From Escherichia phage vB_EcoM_WFC, in sequence record NC_048195.1: a DNA stretch of 64,000 nt. One strand, 5' to 3'. Numbering within the stretch: position 1 is the stretch's first letter; the number at the start of each line of letters is the position of its first letter. Below the pieces are notes generated by a model. The model worked only from the letters and a program-made list of their open reading frames with translations, made no database searches and was not told where the DNA came from. The position numbers and the translations under genes were made by a program. Below, piece after piece: positions 287 through 34,033 of the stretch.

Positions 287-479
287 ATGTGCTGCCGCTT
301 GTTTCTCTATTTAGCAGGTATCTGCCGCGCATTCCATGAAGGCTGAATTCAACCGTCGATGGATTAGATTTTGAAAGCCATATAGGTTGTCCGTCGAATG
401 GACCGCCTATGCATGTGTATTTAGCTTTTGGCTCACTCCTTTTGGGCCGTTTTGCCCGCTCTTTGATTGATAGTCTCAT
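258..479 (-). CDS. hypothetical protein (73 aa)
   Basis: Minus-strand ORF; its stop region overlaps the next ORF by 29 nt, so the true start may be internal. Confidence 0.3.
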   Translation of the reverse strand: MRLSIKERAKRPKRSEPKAKYTCIGGPFDGQPIWLSKSNPSTVEFSLHGMRGRYLLNRETSGSTFVEWKENGK

Positions 480-694
480 CAGTCTTCACCTTGAGATTCC
501 AGACAAGTAAGGACAAGCCACGTCATCGGAAGAATCAAAACCAGAGAAATGAGGGACCAGATAGACCAGCACAAGATGACAGACTTGAATGTGTGAACGT
601 CGCCAAACGCAGCAGTAAAACAGAATCCCATCACAAATGCAATAGCGGTGGAATGGTTGTCTATGGCTTTTATGGCACGGTCGATGAGTTTCAT
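479..694 (-). CDS. small membrane protein, two predicted TM helices (holin-like topology)
   Basis: 71 aa with two hydrophobic stretches (AIAFVMGFCFTAAFG and ILCWSIWSLISLVLILPMTWLVL). Confidence 0.4.
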   Translation of the reverse strand: MKLIDRAIKAIDNHSTAIAFVMGFCFTAAFGDVHTFKSVILCWSIWSLISLVLILPMTWLVLTCLESQGED

Positions 695-871: not shown

Positions 872-2332
872 ATGAATAAAATATTAACACATAATTGGAA
901 ATTCATGTACCAGTTGAATCCTGCTTTAAAAGAAGTCTGGAAGACAAAAGCGCGATACAAAGTAATATACGGCGGTCGTGCATCTTCCAAATCGCATGAT
1001 GCCGCTGGTTTTGCTATTTATTTGGCGGCAAACTTCAAATTAAAATTCCTTTGCGTTCGACAATTCCAGAACAAGATTTCTGAATCTGTATATACTCTAT
1101 TAAAAGATAAAATAGAGATTTCTGATTTTAAAGATGAGTTCAATTTATTAAAGAACTCTATCGAGCATAAAAGAACTAAATCTGAATTTCTATTTTACGG
1201 TATCGCACGTAACGTTGATGAAATTAAATCAACGGAAGGTGTTGATGTTCTTTGGCTGGAAGAAGCGCACGCACTTACTGAAGAACAGTGGGACATTATT
1301 GAGCCGACAATCCGTAAAGAAGGGTCAGAAATATGGATCATCTTTAACCCTGATGAAGAGGCCGATTTCGTCTACCAAAACTTTGTTATGCGACCGCCGA
1401 AGAATGCCATAGTTAAAAAGATAAACTGGCAAGACAACCCATTCTTGTCGCAAACAATGCTGGATGTTATCGCAGGCATGTACGAGCGCGACCCGAAAAA
1501 GGCAGAGCACGTTTATGGCGGCGTGCCGAAGACTGGCGGCGATAAATCTGTAATCAACCGTGCATTCGTTAAGGCCGCTCTTAATCTCCACAAACACCCT
1601 ACGCTGGGCTGGAGTTTGTCAGGGTCTAACCGTATAGGCTTTGACGTAGCGGACGATGGCGACGACCTTAACGCCACTGCATTCGTCACAGGAAACGTAT
1701 TGCGCGGCATCAAGACGTGGGAAGGTCTGGAAGATGAATTGTTGAAATCGGCAAGCGGAGTTTGGAAAGATGCGCTTACATTTGGCGCTTCTATAACTTA
1801 TGACGCCATCGGTGTCGGCGCTTTTGCTGGTTCAAAATTTGATGAACTAAACGAGTATGCAATACATGAAAATCCATCATTTCCAAGAATCGAATTTAAT
1901 GCGTTCAACGCGCAAGGGTCTGTTGATGATCCTGATGACGTTTTTCTTGAGCTACCACACGTTGAAATACTCAATAAAGACCATTTCGCAAACATAAAAG
2001 CGCAAAAGTGGACTGAAATTGCAGAGAGATTCAGAAAGACATACGAATATGCAACTGGGCAAGCCGTATATCCGACTGATGAATTGATTTCAATCGACAC
2101 CGATGGTATACCGGAACTTGGGATTCCAGCTTGGACTACTGAAGAGATTGAGACGTTTCTTTTTGAGATGTCAGCGCCGCGCAAAGATACGTCTGTTCTT
2201 GGCAAGTTCAAAGTTGAATCTAAAAAGGATATGGCAAAGCGTGGAGTCAAATCACCTAACAAAGCGGACGCAGCAATCATGGCATTGATGAAACCAATCG
2301 TTGCAGCATCCGGCTTCTTCTCTAACCTTTAA
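872..2332 (+). CDS. terminase large subunit
   Basis: 486 aa; N-terminal Walker A-like GGRASSKS about 35 residues in, followed by a nuclease-like C-terminal half; first gene of the structural block. Start could instead be the ATG at 905. Confidence 0.9.
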   Translation: MNKILTHNWKFMYQLNPALKEVWKTKARYKVIYGGRASSKSHDAAGFAIYLAANFKLKFLCVRQFQNKISESVYTLLKDKIEISDFKDEFNLLKNSIEHKRTKSEFLFYGIARNVDEIKSTEGVDVLWLEEAHALTEEQWDIIEPTIRKEGSEIWIIFNPDEEADFVYQNFVMRPPKNAIVKKINWQDNPFLSQTMLDVIAGMYERDPKKAEHVYGGVPKTGGDKSVINRAFVKAALNLHKHPTLGWSLSGSNRIGFDVADDGDDLNATAFVTGNVLRGIKTWEGLEDELLKSASGVWKDALTFGASITYDAIGVGAFAGSKFDELNEYAIHENPSFPRIEFNAFNAQGSVDDPDDVFLELPHVEILNKDHFANIKAQKWTEIAERFRKTYEYATGQAVYPTDELISIDTDGIPELGIPAWTTEEIETFLFEMSAPRKDTSVLGKFKVESKKDMAKRGVKSPNKADAAIMALMKPIVAASGFFSNL

Positions 2333-2335
2333 CAA

Positions 2336-2575
2336 TTAAAGCATTCCGTGCTGAAGGTCTAGTTTTCTTGCAGCAAATGACCTGGCACGGAATCGCTTAC
2401 CCGCTCTTACTGCCTGCCGAATCTTCTTTTGCATACACTTACGGTCAAAATCGTTGCGGTCAACGGCTTCGAGCAAATCCCGACGCAAAGCACCTAGTGT
2501 CGCCTTTTCGGATAATTCTACGCCCAGCGCGGCTGCAACGTCTTTCAAAACATCGAGTTCGGTTAACGTTCTCAT
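2336..2575 (-). CDS. small basic protein with N-terminal helix-extension-helix (Rho_N/SAP-like) motif
   Basis: 79 aa; LTELDVLKDVAAALGVEL pattern then Arg/Lys-rich tail; second gene of a two-gene minus-strand unit inside the + strand structural block. Confidence 0.4.
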   Translation of the reverse strand: MRTLTELDVLKDVAAALGVELSEKATLGALRRDLLEAVDRNDFDRKCMQKKIRQAVRAGKRFRARSFAARKLDLQHGML

Positions 2576-28777: not shown

Positions 28778-29422
28778 ATGATTAATGCAAACGTAATATC
28801 TAAAGGGACCGGATGCAGCATGGATGTTGCTGAAAAATGGGTCGACCCCTTCAAGCAGGCTTGTGAGCACTACGGAATCAAAAGCAAGAATGCCATCGCG
28901 GCGCTGCTTGCAAACGTAGGAGTGGAAACAGGCAGCCTGAAGACCTTTGTGGAAAACCTGAATTATTCCGCTCAAGGTCTTGCTAATACGTGGCCTAGCC
29001 GTTACAGCGCCAGCGGTCGTTTCGGTGGCGCACCAAACTCCTTGGCATTGTCGATTGCCCGTAAACCAATGGAAATCGCCAATAATACATATGCAAACCG
29101 AATGGGAAATGGTTCGGTAGCATCTGGCGACGGTTGGAAGTACCGTGGCCGTGGTGCCATTCAGCTGACTGGAAAGGCTAACTATGCAGAGTATTCAAAG
29201 CAATCAGGGTATGACGCATTGAATAACCCTGACATTTTGACTGAGCCGAAATACATCGCTGACAGCGCGGCGTGGTTCTTCAAGAACAGCGGTTGCATTC
29301 CACTTGCCGATGCGGGTGCATTTGATTCGACCGTGAAGCGGATTAACGGGGCCGCGCCGAATACGGCTAACCATGGGGATTTGCGACGGAAGCGTTACAA
29401 GGATGTACTAGCAGTCATGTAA
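28778..29422 (+). CDS. endolysin, glycoside hydrolase family 19 (chitinase-like)
   Basis: 214 aa; AAGGTGA RBS; GDGWKYRGRGAIQLTGKANY block typical of GH19 lysozymes; no signal peptide or TM segment. Confidence 0.8.
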   Translation: MINANVISKGTGCSMDVAEKWVDPFKQACEHYGIKSKNAIAALLANVGVETGSLKTFVENLNYSAQGLANTWPSRYSASGRFGGAPNSLALSIARKPMEIANNTYANRMGNGSVASGDGWKYRGRGAIQLTGKANYAEYSKQSGYDALNNPDILTEPKYIADSAAWFFKNSGCIPLADAGAFDSTVKRINGAAPNTANHGDLRRKRYKDVLAVM

Positions 29423-29423
29423 G

Positions 29424-29454
29424 AAAAAGGCCCATATGGGCCTTTGTTTATTTT
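29424..29454. terminator. bidirectional intrinsic terminator between convergent genes
   Basis: AAAGGCCC ATAT GGGCCTTT hairpin flanked by A-run upstream and T-run downstream. Confidence 0.65.
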
Positions 29455-29678
29455 ACGGCTTCAACCTGGACAGGCGGCGCGGAACTTGTATCAATGTCTG
29501 GCAAGTCGAAGTAATACCCCGCCATGCCAATCACGCCAACAATCGCGGCCCGTGCCACCTTGTTGCTAATTGACTCCCCAATAAGCTTTACCAACAGGGA
29601 CAAGATTTGAGACGTCAAAGCCTTTTTCAGCCTTTTGTTTTCTTCCAAATCTTTCTGCATAACTACCACCCATGTCAA
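29448..29678 (-). CDS. small membrane protein (one TM helix), possible holin or antiholin
   Basis: 76 aa with hydrophobic segment VARAAIVGVIGMAGYYF; convergent with the endolysin gene. Confidence 0.4.
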   Translation of the reverse strand: MTWVVVMQKDLEENKRLKKALTSQILSLLVKLIGESISNKVARAAIVGVIGMAGYYFDLPDIDTSSAPPVQVEAVK

Positions 29679-30217
29679 CGCACATCCTGTGTCTTAACAT
29701 TACCTGAAGCATCTCTTAAGGGCAGTGGATAGTAGGCCATTTGGTAGTCTGATACGCCTTCAACATGATAAAACACGATTACGTCTTTGCTGTTGATGAG
29801 CATGTTAACGACATCTGATTTATCTTCTGGAGTGAGTATGAGTGCGCCGCCTGTCCTGCTGTCTACTGCAACAGGGTATGTCTTGTCGACAAGGCCGCTG
29901 TCCAATGTATTATACCTGACAACGATTTCAGCGGCATCAACTTTTGCAATTGACATTCCGAACACAAACGAAACGACTTGGCGACCGCGATCATTCATTA
30001 CGCACATCTTTTCCTTATCAAACCTTTTCTTTATCACATCATATTTGTTCCAGCAAAATTCGAACGATTGGCCGTTGTTAAAATATCTCGTTAACACTTT
30101 GGCATTACTATTTGGCGGCGTAAACATACTTTCAGCCGCTGCACTTTTGGTGAAGAACAAGACTGTCAGCATAGCCATGATGGTGATCAAAACAATCTTT
30201 AAAGTTTTCGATTTCAT
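29675..30217 (-). CDS. secreted protein with N-terminal signal peptide
   Basis: 180 aa; MKSKTLKIVLITIMAMLTVLFFTKSAAA then polar mature part. Confidence 0.45.
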   Translation of the reverse strand: MKSKTLKIVLITIMAMLTVLFFTKSAAAESMFTPPNSNAKVLTRYFNNGQSFEFCWNKYDVIKKRFDKEKMCVMNDRGRQVVSFVFGMSIAKVDAAEIVVRYNTLDSGLVDKTYPVAVDSRTGGALILTPEDKSDVVNMLINSKDVIVFYHVEGVSDYQMAYYPLPLRDASGNVKTQDVR

Positions 30218-31358: not shown

Positions 31359-31982
31359 TTATTGTCCTGTAACTTCTCTGATCACACGGTCTTCAAGTTC
31401 CAGCTTCTTTACCATTTTGCAGGAGTGCTCATAAGCGGGATCAGTAGATTTGATGAACGTTCCGTTGTACATGACACCTTTGCGGTCCTTGATGTCTTCG
31501 TAGGCCGCTTGCGCACAGTCGGATAAGCGAAGGCCATAATCATGAGCTACGCCGGAAAGGTAATCGACTGCGGCCATGATGGTGACGTCAATATCCATGG
31601 TCTGATTCTTAGCAATAGCATCACCAAGCCGTCCAAGGGTCTTTGCCAGGCGAAGGATGAATGAATGAGGGTGAGCGCCTTTATCAGCGCAACCGCCGCC
31701 ATTAATGTTTTCGATTTCAGTACCGTTTTGCGCCGCCAGGATGGTCAACACAACAAGACAATCGCCAATGTCGTCCTTGATTGCAGCTTGCAAGTCACAG
31801 ATGGCCTGCTCTGTATATCCAATTTCAGGGTCGAAGAACACAAGGTCATGGAGTTGATCAACGTGGTCGGTTAACTCCCCAAACTCGCTGATAAGCTTCG
31901 GGTATTGGTCCTTAAGGTCGCAACCTTGGATGATGTTACGGTCAGAAGCCCACTGGCGAATGTTTGCATAAATCTGTTTCAT
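31359..31982 (-). CDS. MazG-like nucleotide pyrophosphohydrolase (putative)
   Basis: 207 aa; all-alpha pattern with EFGELTDH and DIGDCLVVL acidic motifs resembling MazG/HisE-type NTP pyrophosphatases. Confidence 0.5.
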   Translation of the reverse strand: MKQIYANIRQWASDRNIIQGCDLKDQYPKLISEFGELTDHVDQLHDLVFFDPEIGYTEQAICDLQAAIKDDIGDCLVVLTILAAQNGTEIENINGGGCADKGAHPHSFILRLAKTLGRLGDAIAKNQTMDIDVTIMAAVDYLSGVAHDYGLRLSDCAQAAYEDIKDRKGVMYNGTFIKSTDPAYEHSCKMVKKLELEDRVIREVTGQ

Positions 31983-32498
31983 CTATTTTTCCTTTGATGC
32001 ATTGAATTGATCGATTTTTATTTTAGCCTGATTATAAGTATCAATCAAGCTATTAACTTTCTCTTTTAATCGATTTGTTTCTGCGGCGAACTGAACAAGA
32101 AATCTGACATCCTCTTCTGATAGTCCACAGTTTCCTTCTGGGATAGAGAGGCGTCCAGTGGTCGCAGAGTCGGGCACACTCCTGAGTAACTCACGGGAGC
32201 AGCTGAGTTGCTCGCGCAACTTGACATTCCCAGACTTGTAACGAGCAATAGTGTCATCAGCAACCAGTTGCGCTTCCTGGCGACCCTTCTCATATGCCGA
32301 TGCCGATTCAACCTGTAAAGTTGCAATTTGCTCTTCGAGTGCATTTATCTTGTCCTTACGCTCATTAAGCGATGTCAGATATTGATTATCCTTGGCCAGT
32401 GATGCGTTGGTTTGCTGCAGGTCTTCAACGTATGATCCAGCGGCAAACGCGCCAACAAGGGCCAGAATCTTCAGGAGCGGTACAATTCTTTCTATCAT
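31983..32498 (-). CDS. i-spanin (Rz-like)
   Basis: 171 aa; N-terminal TM segment (IVPLLKILALVGAFAAGSYV), long coiled-coil periplasmic part, and an embedded lipoprotein ORF in another frame. Confidence 0.5.
   Translation of the reverse strand: MIERIVPLLKILALVGAFAAGSYVEDLQQTNASLAKDNQYLTSLNERKDKINALEEQIATLQVESASAYEKGRQEAQLVADDTIARYKSGNVKLREQLSCSRELLRSVPDSATTGRLSIPEGNCGLSEEDVRFLVQFAAETNRLKEKVNSLIDTYNQAKIKIDQFNASKEK
32066..32293 (-). CDS. o-spanin (Rz1-like) embedded in the i-spanin gene
   Basis: Out-of-frame ORF wholly inside 31983-32498; MRRVARKRNWLLMTLLLVTSLGMSSC lipoprotein-like signal with Cys, followed by a short Pro-containing mature peptide. Confidence 0.45.
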   Translation of the reverse strand: MRRVARKRNWLLMTLLLVTSLGMSSCASNSAAPVSYSGVCPTLRPLDASLSQKETVDYQKRMSDFLFSSPQKQID

Positions 32499-32555
32499 GA
32501 TGCACCAGATAAATAAAAGGCCGCCAAACGGCAGCCTTGTTGATTTGATTGTCGA

Positions 32556-33416
32556 TTAAAACTCTTCTGCGTCGGTCGGAGTTTCATTGACAGGACCAGC
32601 GGCACCGCTTGCTTCTTCCTGCTTGCTGCGGTCGATGTTAACGTTACCGCCAACTACGTCGTTGTGGAATGCCTTGGCGACTTCGTACAGGCCTTTGTCC
32701 TGCACCAGACCTTCCAGCTCAAACTTCAGAACAGACCAGGTGTTGCCGTCTTTGGACTGGGATGCAGTACCCATGCGAACGATGTTCATAAAGGTCGGCG
32801 GCGTTTTCAGACCCTGCGGAGTCTGAACTTTCTTCTGCTGCAGAGCGGTCATCAGCATGCGAGACGGCTTGATCATGGAAGAAGTCAGAGACAGCATTGC
32901 GCTACCAAATTCACCAGTTTCTTCGTTCAACAGAATTACGAAGTGGTTGCGTGTATCTGCGTAGTAAGGAGATTTCTTCTCGTGCACCTTGCCGTTTTCG
33001 TCCGGCACGAATACCTTACCGTTGATCTCAACAGCGCGGCCTGCCGCGACTTCTGCATCAACGTGCTCTTTGGTGAATTCACCTTTAAAGCCTTTATCGT
33101 CGGACTCGCGACCGCCCCAAAGAATGAAGGTGCGTTTGAATGCGCAAGGGATGATTTGCACGCCTTTCTTGCCGTCATACAACTCACCAGTAACGGTGTT
33201 GTAAAGCATGCCAGCTTTTGCGCCAGGAACGTGTTTTGGATCATCTTCGTCGACCATAGGAGACATCTTCTGCAGTACGACGATAAAAGGAATGGCATAC
33301 GCATCGGCATCGGCACCTTCAAAACCAGCGCCAAAATCGGTCATGTCGACAAAATCAGCCATAGCGGACATCTGGGTGTTTTTCACTGCAACTTCGGTGG
33401 TTTCTTTCTTAGACAT
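32556..33416 (-). CDS. putative ssDNA-binding or annealing protein
   Basis: 286 aa; acidic C-terminal tail ending in Phe (TDAEEF), as in T7 gp2.5-type SSBs; position within the replication module. Confidence 0.4.
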   Translation of the reverse strand: MSKKETTEVAVKNTQMSAMADFVDMTDFGAGFEGADADAYAIPFIVVLQKMSPMVDEDDPKHVPGAKAGMLYNTVTGELYDGKKGVQIIPCAFKRTFILWGGRESDDKGFKGEFTKEHVDAEVAAGRAVEINGKVFVPDENGKVHEKKSPYYADTRNHFVILLNEETGEFGSAMLSLTSSMIKPSRMLMTALQQKKVQTPQGLKTPPTFMNIVRMGTASQSKDGNTWSVLKFELEGLVQDKGLYEVAKAFHNDVVGGNVNIDRSKQEEASGAAGPVNETPTDAEEF

Positions 33417-33475: not shown

Positions 33476-34033
33476 TTACTTTTTGCTTTTAGGCAAGGTT
33501 ATTTTAGCTTCTTTGTATTCAAAAACGCTAATATCTTCACTAACTGGATTGCCCGCTTCCAGCTGTTCTTTTACAAACGACTTCAGTGTAGCAGAATGAA
33601 CGCCTTGTTTCAACGTGGCTTCAACACCATCTTCACGCAGCGCAGCAACAATCTCTTGCGCCTGTTCGATTTCTTCGCGACCGAACTCAGCCGTGACGCT
33701 GGACTTGATCAAGCCGCCGTAACCGTTGTTGACAAGCCAATCGAAAACTTTTAATTCGTTTTCTTTCTTGATTGAAGCGTTCACCCTGGACTCGACCTTG
33801 ATTTTGGTCTTGTCCTCAAGCTTGATTTCGGACACGCCAAGCTCATCCATAACGCCAGGAAGCAGAACAGTTTTGATTTCACTGATGCGCTGCTTTTGCA
33901 TATCAGCTTCATCTTCAAGCTCTGTCAAAGCTTCTTGTCGTTCTGCCAGTTCAGACACTAAGCGCGCAAGGCGCTCTTGAATGCTCTCAGGAGCAACCTG
34001 CGGCAAATCATCTTCCCAATTAATATTGCTCAT
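33476..34033 (-). CDS. hypothetical protein (185 aa), acidic coiled-coil N-terminus
   Basis: Replication-module ORF; no recognisable motif. Confidence 0.45.
   Translation of the reverse strand: MSNINWEDDLPQVAPESIQERLARLVSELAERQEALTELEDEADMQKQRISEIKTVLLPGVMDELGVSEIKLEDKTKIKVESRVNASIKKENELKVFDWLVNNGYGGLIKSSVTAEFGREEIEQAQEIVAALREDGVEATLKQGVHSATLKSFVKEQLEAGNPVSEDISVFEYKEAKITLPKSKK

Follow-up and report, generated by a model that had tools for sequence, protein, structure and literature searches.

A probable embedded Rz/Rz1-type spanin gene pair in the replication module of Escherichia phage vB_EcoM_WFC

Does the replication module of Escherichia phage vB_EcoM_WFC carry spanin genes, away from the endolysin gene? 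The question is raised by a locus in a stretch of 64,000 nucleotides (nt) of this phage (NC_048195.1; the whole stretch is called the window here), in which the gene for a protein of 171 amino acids (aa) encloses a second, out-of-frame open reading frame (ORF). An original prediction, made from the sequence alone, had read the two as an inner-membrane spanin (i-spanin) and an embedded outer-membrane spanin (o-spanin). When the criteria for two-component spanins of Summer 2007 and Kongari 2018 are applied, the locus very probably is a two-component embedded spanin of the Rz/Rz1 type, a reading that draws directly on gene architecture, signals, selection in both frames, homology and synteny.

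The 2.2 kb around the locus are 99.5% identical to Escherichia phage vB_Eco4M-7 and 93-99% identical to 26 further Wifcevirus records, including ECML-117, FEC19, Mansfield, WFH and Bas98-101 (BASEL), and by this sequence evidence the window is assigned to the genome of a Wifcevirus myophage. The outer protein is identical to gp69 of vB_Eco4M-7 (171 aa), and the i-spanins of the other Wifcevirus phages are 96-100% identical to it. A scan of IMG/VR yielded three near-identical relatives and no divergent ones, so that for the deeper comparison we used four Logan contigs (L005-L008), whose i-spanins are 52-65% identical to that of the window by alignment, and the more distant gp065 of Pantoea phage LIET2. 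Two alignments were used, one of five Wifcevirus-like i-spanins (A2) and one of eight members in which LIET2, PY54 and Mica were added to these five (A3).

The outer gene and the gene within it

The following elements make up the locus.

31983..32498, minus strand: predicted i-spanin gene (Rz-like), 171 aa, ATG start (ORF; phrog_1327; AlphaFold2; annotation in relatives)
32430..32486, minus strand: predicted transmembrane anchor of the i-spanin, codons ~5-23, IVPLLKILALVGAFAAGSY (Kyte-Doolittle)
32353..32357, minus strand: AAGGA, Shine-Dalgarno-like motif 8 nt 5' of the o-spanin M1 ATG, within i-spanin codons R-K-D
32066..32344, minus strand: predicted o-spanin gene (Rz1-like), 92 aa from M1 (ORF in the +1 frame, wholly inside the i-spanin gene)
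32216..32227, minus strand: lipobox M-S-S-C, residues 40-43 of the long form of the o-spanin (pattern and alignment)

The outer protein begins, as had been proposed, with a hydrophobic segment. Residues ~5-23 reach a Kyte-Doolittle maximum of 2.14 (17-residue window), and a hydrophobic N-terminus is kept in all eight homologs of A3. The AlphaFold2 model, built on the five-sequence alignment, consists of a helix (5-106), a non-helical loop (107-127) and a second helix (128-170), with a mean predicted local distance difference test score (pLDDT) of 78.8. This modelled helix-loop-helix is the layout described for Rz-type i-spanins, and the protein is predicted to have a single N-terminal membrane helix in type II orientation (N-in/C-out). 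Cys100, near the end of the first helix, is invariant across the eight members of A3, and Cys124, in the loop, is invariant in the five sequences of A2.

The inner ORF starts 154 nt into the i-spanin ORF, which places it in the +1 frame and in full containment. Its product, MHSKSKLQLYRLNRHRH-MRRVARKRNWLLMTLLLVTSLGMSS followed by CASNS…, shows the succession of a basic n-region, a hydrophobic core and a lipobox Cys, so that the lipoprotein signal and the short peptide with Cys and Pro residues expected from the original prediction are both present. The lipobox LGMSS-C fits a lipoprotein rule like PROSITE PS51257 when the protein is read from M18, with the Cys in position 26. In the relatives L005-L008 the lipobox reads LAISGC, LAISSC or LATSSC, and the Cys is invariant at the aligned position. 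The mature o-spanin would have 50 aa; it begins C-A-S-N, contains four Pro residues and a further Cys, residue 57, within a G[VT]CP motif, and is devoid of a C-terminal hydrophobic segment. Its +2 residue is Ala in the window and A or V in all relatives, never Asp, and sorting to the outer membrane is expected because the residue is Ala and not Asp. Together with C57 of the o-spanin, C100 and C124 of the i-spanin provide periplasmic Cys residues for possible disulfides, and all three are conserved.

Whether an ORF of this kind could arise by chance was assessed in several ways. Under the same lipoprotein rule, the embedded ORF is the sole credible lipoprotein signal in the six frames of the window; the other matches in these frames are out-of-frame ORFs within genes and the N-terminus of one flavoprotein, none of them credible. 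When the synonymous codons of the outer gene were resampled 5000 times, 1.7% of the resamples contained a lipoprotein-like ORF in an alternative frame, and 7.6% contained an alternative-frame ORF of 92 aa or more; this null is conservative, because the outer amino-acid sequence is kept fixed and has itself co-evolved with the embedded gene. All four divergent relatives have an open +1 frame that codes for a member of the same protein family, and LIET2 has an embedded +1 ORF, MKKPWLIIALVISGCANNS…, that aligns with the o-spanin of the window. The lipobox Cys, the G[VT]CP motif and a C-terminal ET[VA]DYQ..MS.FLF motif are invariant in the six o-spanins compared (window, L005-L008 and LIET2). When the five divergent i-spanin genes are aligned by codon, divergence at third positions falls from 0.62 before the overlap to 0.28 within it and is 0.50 after it. 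Synonymous differences at pairs of identical residues follow the same course (0.56, 0.51, 0.26 and 0.41 for codons 1-51, 52-68, 69-144 and 146-171), and the reduction in the overlap core is significant per column (Mann-Whitney p = 1.4e-8). The conservation of the +1 frame and the suppression of synonymous divergence in the overlap indicate that both reading frames are under purifying selection.

The start of the o-spanin can be placed at either of two codons. The AAGGA motif and the M1 ATG (32344) are retained in five of five divergent lineages despite variation of the overlapping i-spanin residues (N/Y/H/D, then A/D/E). A second conserved in-frame ATG, M18 at 32293, would yield a 75-aa precursor with a canonical signal peptide of 25 residues. 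The 17-codon extension between M1 and M18 (32293-32344) is not conserved in sequence and shows no coding constraint, and the footprint of selection reaches from about M18 to the stop codon. The o-spanin of LIET2 differs from that of the window in its short canonical signal peptide, MKKPWLIIALVISG followed by C; this short form is equivalent to M18 and has its own Shine-Dalgarno motif. The sequence evidence is thus divided between M1, favoured by the Shine-Dalgarno motif and ATG, and M18, to which the selection footprint points. One may speculate that the o-spanin is made from M1 with a 42-residue signal peptide, including a strongly basic and unconstrained n-region of 27 residues, or as M1 and M18 isoforms, and that this, with operon read-through, could tune the timing of spanin-complex accumulation and might bear on the very short latent period (~10 min) reported for vB_Eco4M-7 and ECML-117; we regard this idea as unlikely.

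Family assignment and competing explanations

The outer protein matches phrog_1327, 'Rz-like spanin', over almost its full length (E 1.9e-26, residues 6-160 on positions 9-156 of a 158-position profile), and also phrog_2466. The inner product gives weak matches to o-spanin PHROGs (phrog_4306, E 0.004) and no meaningful match in Pfam or NCBIfam, and a PDB sequence search with the i-spanin found nothing. In tblastn the outer protein retrieves Rz-like spanins of PY54 (E 6e-13), LIET2 (6e-12) and Mica (9e-7), and one of the Pantoea phage Nafs113. The i-spanins of PY54 (PY54p62), Mica (gp32, with gp31) and LIET2 (gp065) are homologous to that of the window, with 25-30% identity overall and up to 46% in the C-terminal half, and belong to embedded pairs; in Mica an o-spanin is annotated within the homolog. 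PY54p62 and Mica gp32 differ from the window gene in their position, directly 3' of holin and endolysin genes.

The relation to lambda is more remote. Half of the eight aligned family members match the Pfam family of lambda Rz, PF03245 (Phage_lysis), at E values up to 0.01 (best 6e-17), and the LIET2 homolog scores 22.3 bits against a cut-off of 25.4. By these scores the window protein is best described as a distant relative of PF03245 and not as a scored member. Alignment of the eight-sequence profile with lambda Rz by hhalign is borderline (E 1.7e-4, probability 49%). Taken together, the sequence comparisons place the outer protein in the Rz-like i-spanin superfamily, as a divergent member whose cognate o-spanin is predicted in the embedded frame.

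This spanin pair is ordinary and has already been described in the genus; it is not new. ECML-117 was listed among the embedded two-component spanins by Kongari et al. 2018, as a singleton family for both subunits (PMC6139136). In Mansfield, annotated by the Center for Phage Technology, the orthologs CPT_Mansfield_057/058 are given as i-spanin and o-spanin with a note that cites the ECML-117 i-spanin (UniProt I7ATQ8), and those of Bas98-101 are labelled 'Rz-like spanin' and 'o-spanin' (e.g. Bas99_0037/0038). Table 1 of a 2024 paper on synthetic phages lists vB_Eco4M-7 gp69 as 'Lysis system i-spanin' (PMC11074155). The pairs of ECML-117, Mansfield, Bas98-101 and vB_Eco4M-7 share genes, embedded architecture, position and neighbours with that of the window, with no difference of substance. 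Several Wifcevirus GenBank records, including the closest (MN176217), carry these genes as 'hypothetical protein' and do not call the o-spanin. The value of the assignment thus lies mainly in correct annotation: the outer-membrane step of lysis in this genome is covered by a standard embedded spanin pair. It is also of relevance for the engineering of these fast-lysing, O157-targeting phages, in which edits in 32066-32344 hit two genes at once.

By the lambda paradigm, the steps from topology and lipidation to complex formation, membrane fusion and timing would be as follows. The i-spanin would be anchored in the inner membrane by its one N-terminal helix, with a helical periplasmic domain spanning the periplasm, and the o-spanin would, after export, receive its lipid at the lipobox Cys and move to the outer membrane. 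The two would bind via their C-termini, and the conserved periplasmic Cys residues probably form intermolecular disulfides. Such complexes would be inert as long as the peptidoglycan mesh is intact. When a holin has enabled wall degradation by the GH19 endolysin, they would disrupt the outer membrane by fusing it with the inner one, and lysis would thereby be completed. Transcription of the pair probably occurs together with the leftward replication operon, by reading through an upstream terminator.

Several observations weigh against the spanin assignment and must be noted. The outer protein of the window has no match in Pfam (including PF03245) or NCBIfam, and hhalign of the narrow five-sequence profile with lambda Rz is not significant (E 0.1). 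The lipobox of the window has Met at -3, which is less common, its Cys lies at position 43 when counted from the annotated M1, past the usual 15-35, and the mature o-spanin is poor in Pro (4/50), unlike lambda Rz1. The signals and the membrane helix were judged by hydrophobicity and pattern rules and not by dedicated predictors. The spanin genes do not adjoin the endolysin gene, and the Wifcevirus records examined annotate no holin. The functional data for the clade are indirect and consist of tagging in the C-terminal region of vB_Eco4M-7 gp69, which gave 0 plaques (PMC11074155). This result is compatible with an important gene, and it is confounded because the start codon of the MazG-like gene directly follows the i-spanin stop.

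Some of these points would suit an outer protein that belongs to the replication module as a coiled-coil factor, either in the cytoplasm or loosely attached to the membrane, with an inner ORF that arose by chance. The locus lies among genes of replication and nucleotide metabolism and abuts the MazG-like gene, the outer protein is without a Pfam match, and long ORFs in alternative frames are not rare (92 aa or more in 7.6% of resamplings). However, the N-terminal hydrophobic helix is conserved, the match to the Rz-like spanin PHROG is full-length, and homologs occupy canonical lysis cassettes. The original prediction had itself raised the possibility of a cytoplasmic replication factor, and that of an inner ORF lacking a lipobox and a conserved +1 frame; what was found instead was a membrane helix in a protein with Rz-like PHROG matches and lysis-cassette homologs in PY54 and Mica, and a lipobox in a frame conserved in L005-L008 and LIET2. 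The inner frame and the lipobox Cys are thus kept as far out as LIET2, with synonymous suppression limited to the overlap, and at the level of sequence this constraint on two frames effectively refutes a chance ORF. We consider this explanation extremely unlikely.

The two products might also form an envelope-spanning complex that acts early, in superinfection exclusion or envelope remodelling, and not in lysis. The position in a leftward replication operon with no separate promoter detected suggests expression before the late genes, and phage lipoproteins such as T5 Llp and Cor do act in exclusion. Against this, a lipoprotein gene embedded in the +1 frame of a gene for a type II membrane coiled-coil protein has, to our knowledge, no described case outside the spanins, each of the two products is similar to spanin families, and the window holds no other spanin candidate. 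The T4 spanin genes likewise lie apart from the holin and endolysin genes (PMC6139136). An early role instead of lysis is therefore judged very unlikely. We give hardly any credence to a third explanation, in which only the i-spanin is functional and the o-spanin is decaying or has been replaced by another disruptor elsewhere, such as a unimolecular spanin (u-spanin) or a disruptin-type peptide. The Met at -3 of the lipobox and the ambiguous start codon could be read as signs of decay, and the Pbunavirus relatives use a u-spanin (PMC6139136; AWAC ORF in JJ01). Yet the inner frame is under strong purifying selection with invariant Cys, CP and DYQ motifs, and the window has neither an ORF that combines a lipobox with a C-terminal membrane helix nor a homolog of the gene annotated as holin in JJ01. 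An embedded spanin pair is the reading that we retain.

Position in the replication operon

The pair is located 2561 nt from the endolysin gene, measured from the endolysin end to the 3' end of the spanin genes, and on the opposite strand, in agreement with the distance of about 2.5 kb and the replication-module setting first described for it. Its leftward operon runs from DNA polymerase III alpha through helicases, DUF7307 and a Pam3_Gp34-like gene to the spanins, the MazG-like gene and ligase. All relatives examined, the divergent ones included, have the order helicase, DUF7307, Pam3_Gp34, spanin, MazG-like, ligase. With regard to the flanking genes, the MazG-like identity of one (31359-31982; phrog_1992, E 3e-62), which starts directly after the i-spanin stop, was borne out. 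The other had been taken for a gene related to single-stranded DNA-binding proteins (SSB), and this was not: its product belongs to PF23977 and phrog_2402, and a PDB sequence search with it gave no match.

32507..32538 overall, minus strand: strong intrinsic terminator, 32517-32538 with T tail; 9-bp stem with six G-C pairs, GTTT loop, T-rich tail
32556-33416, minus strand: Pam3_Gp34-like protein, 286 aa; PF23977 and phrog_2402, families without assigned function; acidic tail …PTDAEEF

The terminator ends ~10 nt 5' of the i-spanin ATG and separates the Pam3_Gp34-like gene from the spanin-MazG-ligase genes. Its RNA fold has an energy of -16.3 kcal/mol (z -2.7), and an equivalent hairpin lies 5' of the gene in this slot in L005-L008, Pbunavirus EPa61 and Serratia phage MTx; in Mansfield a terminator is annotated there. 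Conservation of the terminator suggests attenuation of the distal replication operon. A sigma-70 scan between the terminator and the i-spanin start detected no promoter, and the region has 9 sites against 7.5 expected from shuffles. Since no separate promoter was detected, transcription with the replication operon by partial read-through most simply explains expression of the pair. In the lambda paradigm, spanin complexes cannot act before the wall has been degraded. Expression ahead of the late genes would for this reason be harmless. The pseT.3/pseT.2 spanin genes of T4 also lie apart from the holin and endolysin genes (PMC6139136). Given this precedent, the clade-wide gene order and the harmlessness of early expression, the placement of the pair is not anomalous.

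The neighbouring 286-aa protein has tblastn homologs in 508 phage records. Its probable ortholog by size and gene order is vB_Eco4M-7_70, a 31.2-kDa 'unknown protein' of vB_Eco4M-7 of which mass spectrometry found 12 peptides (PMC7048862).

Other spanin systems, the endolysin and holin candidates

The likeness to lambda Rz/Rz1 lies in an o-spanin gene embedded in the i-spanin gene (lambda coordinates), in the N-terminal membrane helix, helix-loop-helix and G-x-x-R-L…C motif before the loop of Rz, and in the short lipoprotein with one extra Cys of Rz1. The pair of the window differs in its borderline sequence similarity, in an o-spanin with few Pro residues and a conserved C-terminal DYQ..MS.FLF, and in its location outside an S-R-Rz cassette. 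T4 PseT.3/PseT.2 is similarly a two-component spanin of a virulent myophage set apart from holin and endolysin (PMC6139136), whereas its genes are separated and not embedded, and its sequences are unrelated.

Pbunavirus phages (PB1-type), the nearest well-studied relatives of Wifcevirus, have a unimolecular spanin with an AWAC lipobox (PMC6139136), in which one polypeptide, with a lipobox and a membrane helix at its C-terminus, serves the same step of outer-membrane disruption. In JJ01 an AWAC u-spanin ORF with a C-terminal hydrophobic stretch was found at gp40 (L020 ~2184-2567, minus strand), near the annotated holin and terminase and outside the replication operon. No such unimolecular ORF, with lipobox and C-terminal membrane helix, was found in the six-frame scan of the window, and a second spanin or u-spanin there was dropped as a candidate, only the embedded ORF being credible in the lipoprotein-pattern scan. 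In BcepF1 the spanin genes are separated and lie closer to the endolysin gene. The supergroup members examined accordingly show three outer-membrane solutions, namely embedded, separated and unimolecular spanins.

JJ01 gp85 (L020:37925-38545) is labelled 'U-spanin', yet by eye has no lipobox and no hydrophobic segment. It is homologous to a 185-aa protein of the window (33476-34033, minus strand; tblastn E 1e-29), whose orthologs in related contigs belong to DUF7307 (PF23984). The label is misleading and could be carried over to the DUF7307-family gene of the window.

In EPa61 and JJ01 (Pbunavirus), MTx (Myosmarvirus, Serratia) and BcepF1 (Burkholderia), the slot between the Pam3_Gp34-like and MazG-like genes, filled by the spanins in Wifcevirus, holds an unrelated 201-aa Bbp1-like protein (phrog_1544), encoded in the comparison sequences as follows.

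L009:6792-7397: 201-aa Bbp1-like gene
L010:6940-7545: 201-aa Bbp1-like gene
L014:5940-6545: 201-aa Bbp1-like gene
L020:36275-36880: 201-aa Bbp1-like gene

This protein has a glycine-rich hydrophobic N-terminus, a centre that looks helical by eye and hydrophobic C-terminal segments. It gives a weak, sub-threshold match to GTA_holin_3TM, its family has no assigned function, and a role in lysis by those phages is possible. Neither this protein nor the gene annotated as holin in JJ01 has a homolog in the window.

The endolysin of the window and the two candidates for a holin are the following.

28778..29422, plus strand: GH19-type endolysin (phrog_181, E 5e-69; PF00182, E 2e-7)
29448..29678, minus strand: small protein with one hydrophobic segment, probably 70 aa from ATG 29660 as annotated in relatives (phrog_5165, a family without assigned function)
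479-694, minus strand: ORF of 71 aa, two hydrophobic segments, acidic C-terminus, in a leftward cluster upstream of terminase

The endolysin gene, the last in the rightward structural operon, is convergent with the leftward, spanin-bearing operon. By eye, its product has no N-terminal hydrophobic segment fit for a signal-anchor-release (SAR) or signal domain. No holin, the protein that times lysis, is annotated in any Wifcevirus record examined. The 479-694 product has no match in Pfam, PHROGs or NCBIfam and is only a formal candidate for a class-II holin; the membrane-helix scan of the window skipped it, as greedy ORF choice took an overlapping ORF on the opposite strand.

The small gene at 29448-29678 converges on the endolysin gene and has a homolog beside the endolysin in Pbunavirus EPa61 (gp50). 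Its product gives tblastn matches in 324 phage records, all labelled hypothetical, and is a candidate only, for a holin or a lysis-accessory protein. A similar small protein at the same place in MTx, gp058, gave no significant tblastn match to the window region. In Pantoea phage PA1 the small protein PA1-LRP, encoded beside a homologous endolysin and hydrophobic at residues 40-60, is reported to be toxic and to assist the endolysin (PMC11538084). The 29448-29678 product may correspond to PA1-LRP.

Between ligase and the small hydrophobic protein lies a gene (29675-30217, minus strand) for a 180-aa protein that begins with a signal or anchor sequence, MKSKTLKIVLITIMAMLTVLFFTKSAAAE, and matches no family; MTx encodes at the same place an exported protein of weak similarity, gp059 (tblastn E 0.009). 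At 29426-29445, between the convergent genes for the endolysin and the small hydrophobic protein, a palindromic hairpin, AAAGGCCCATATGGGCCTTT, is likely a bidirectional terminator, and Mansfield has terminators annotated there on both strands.

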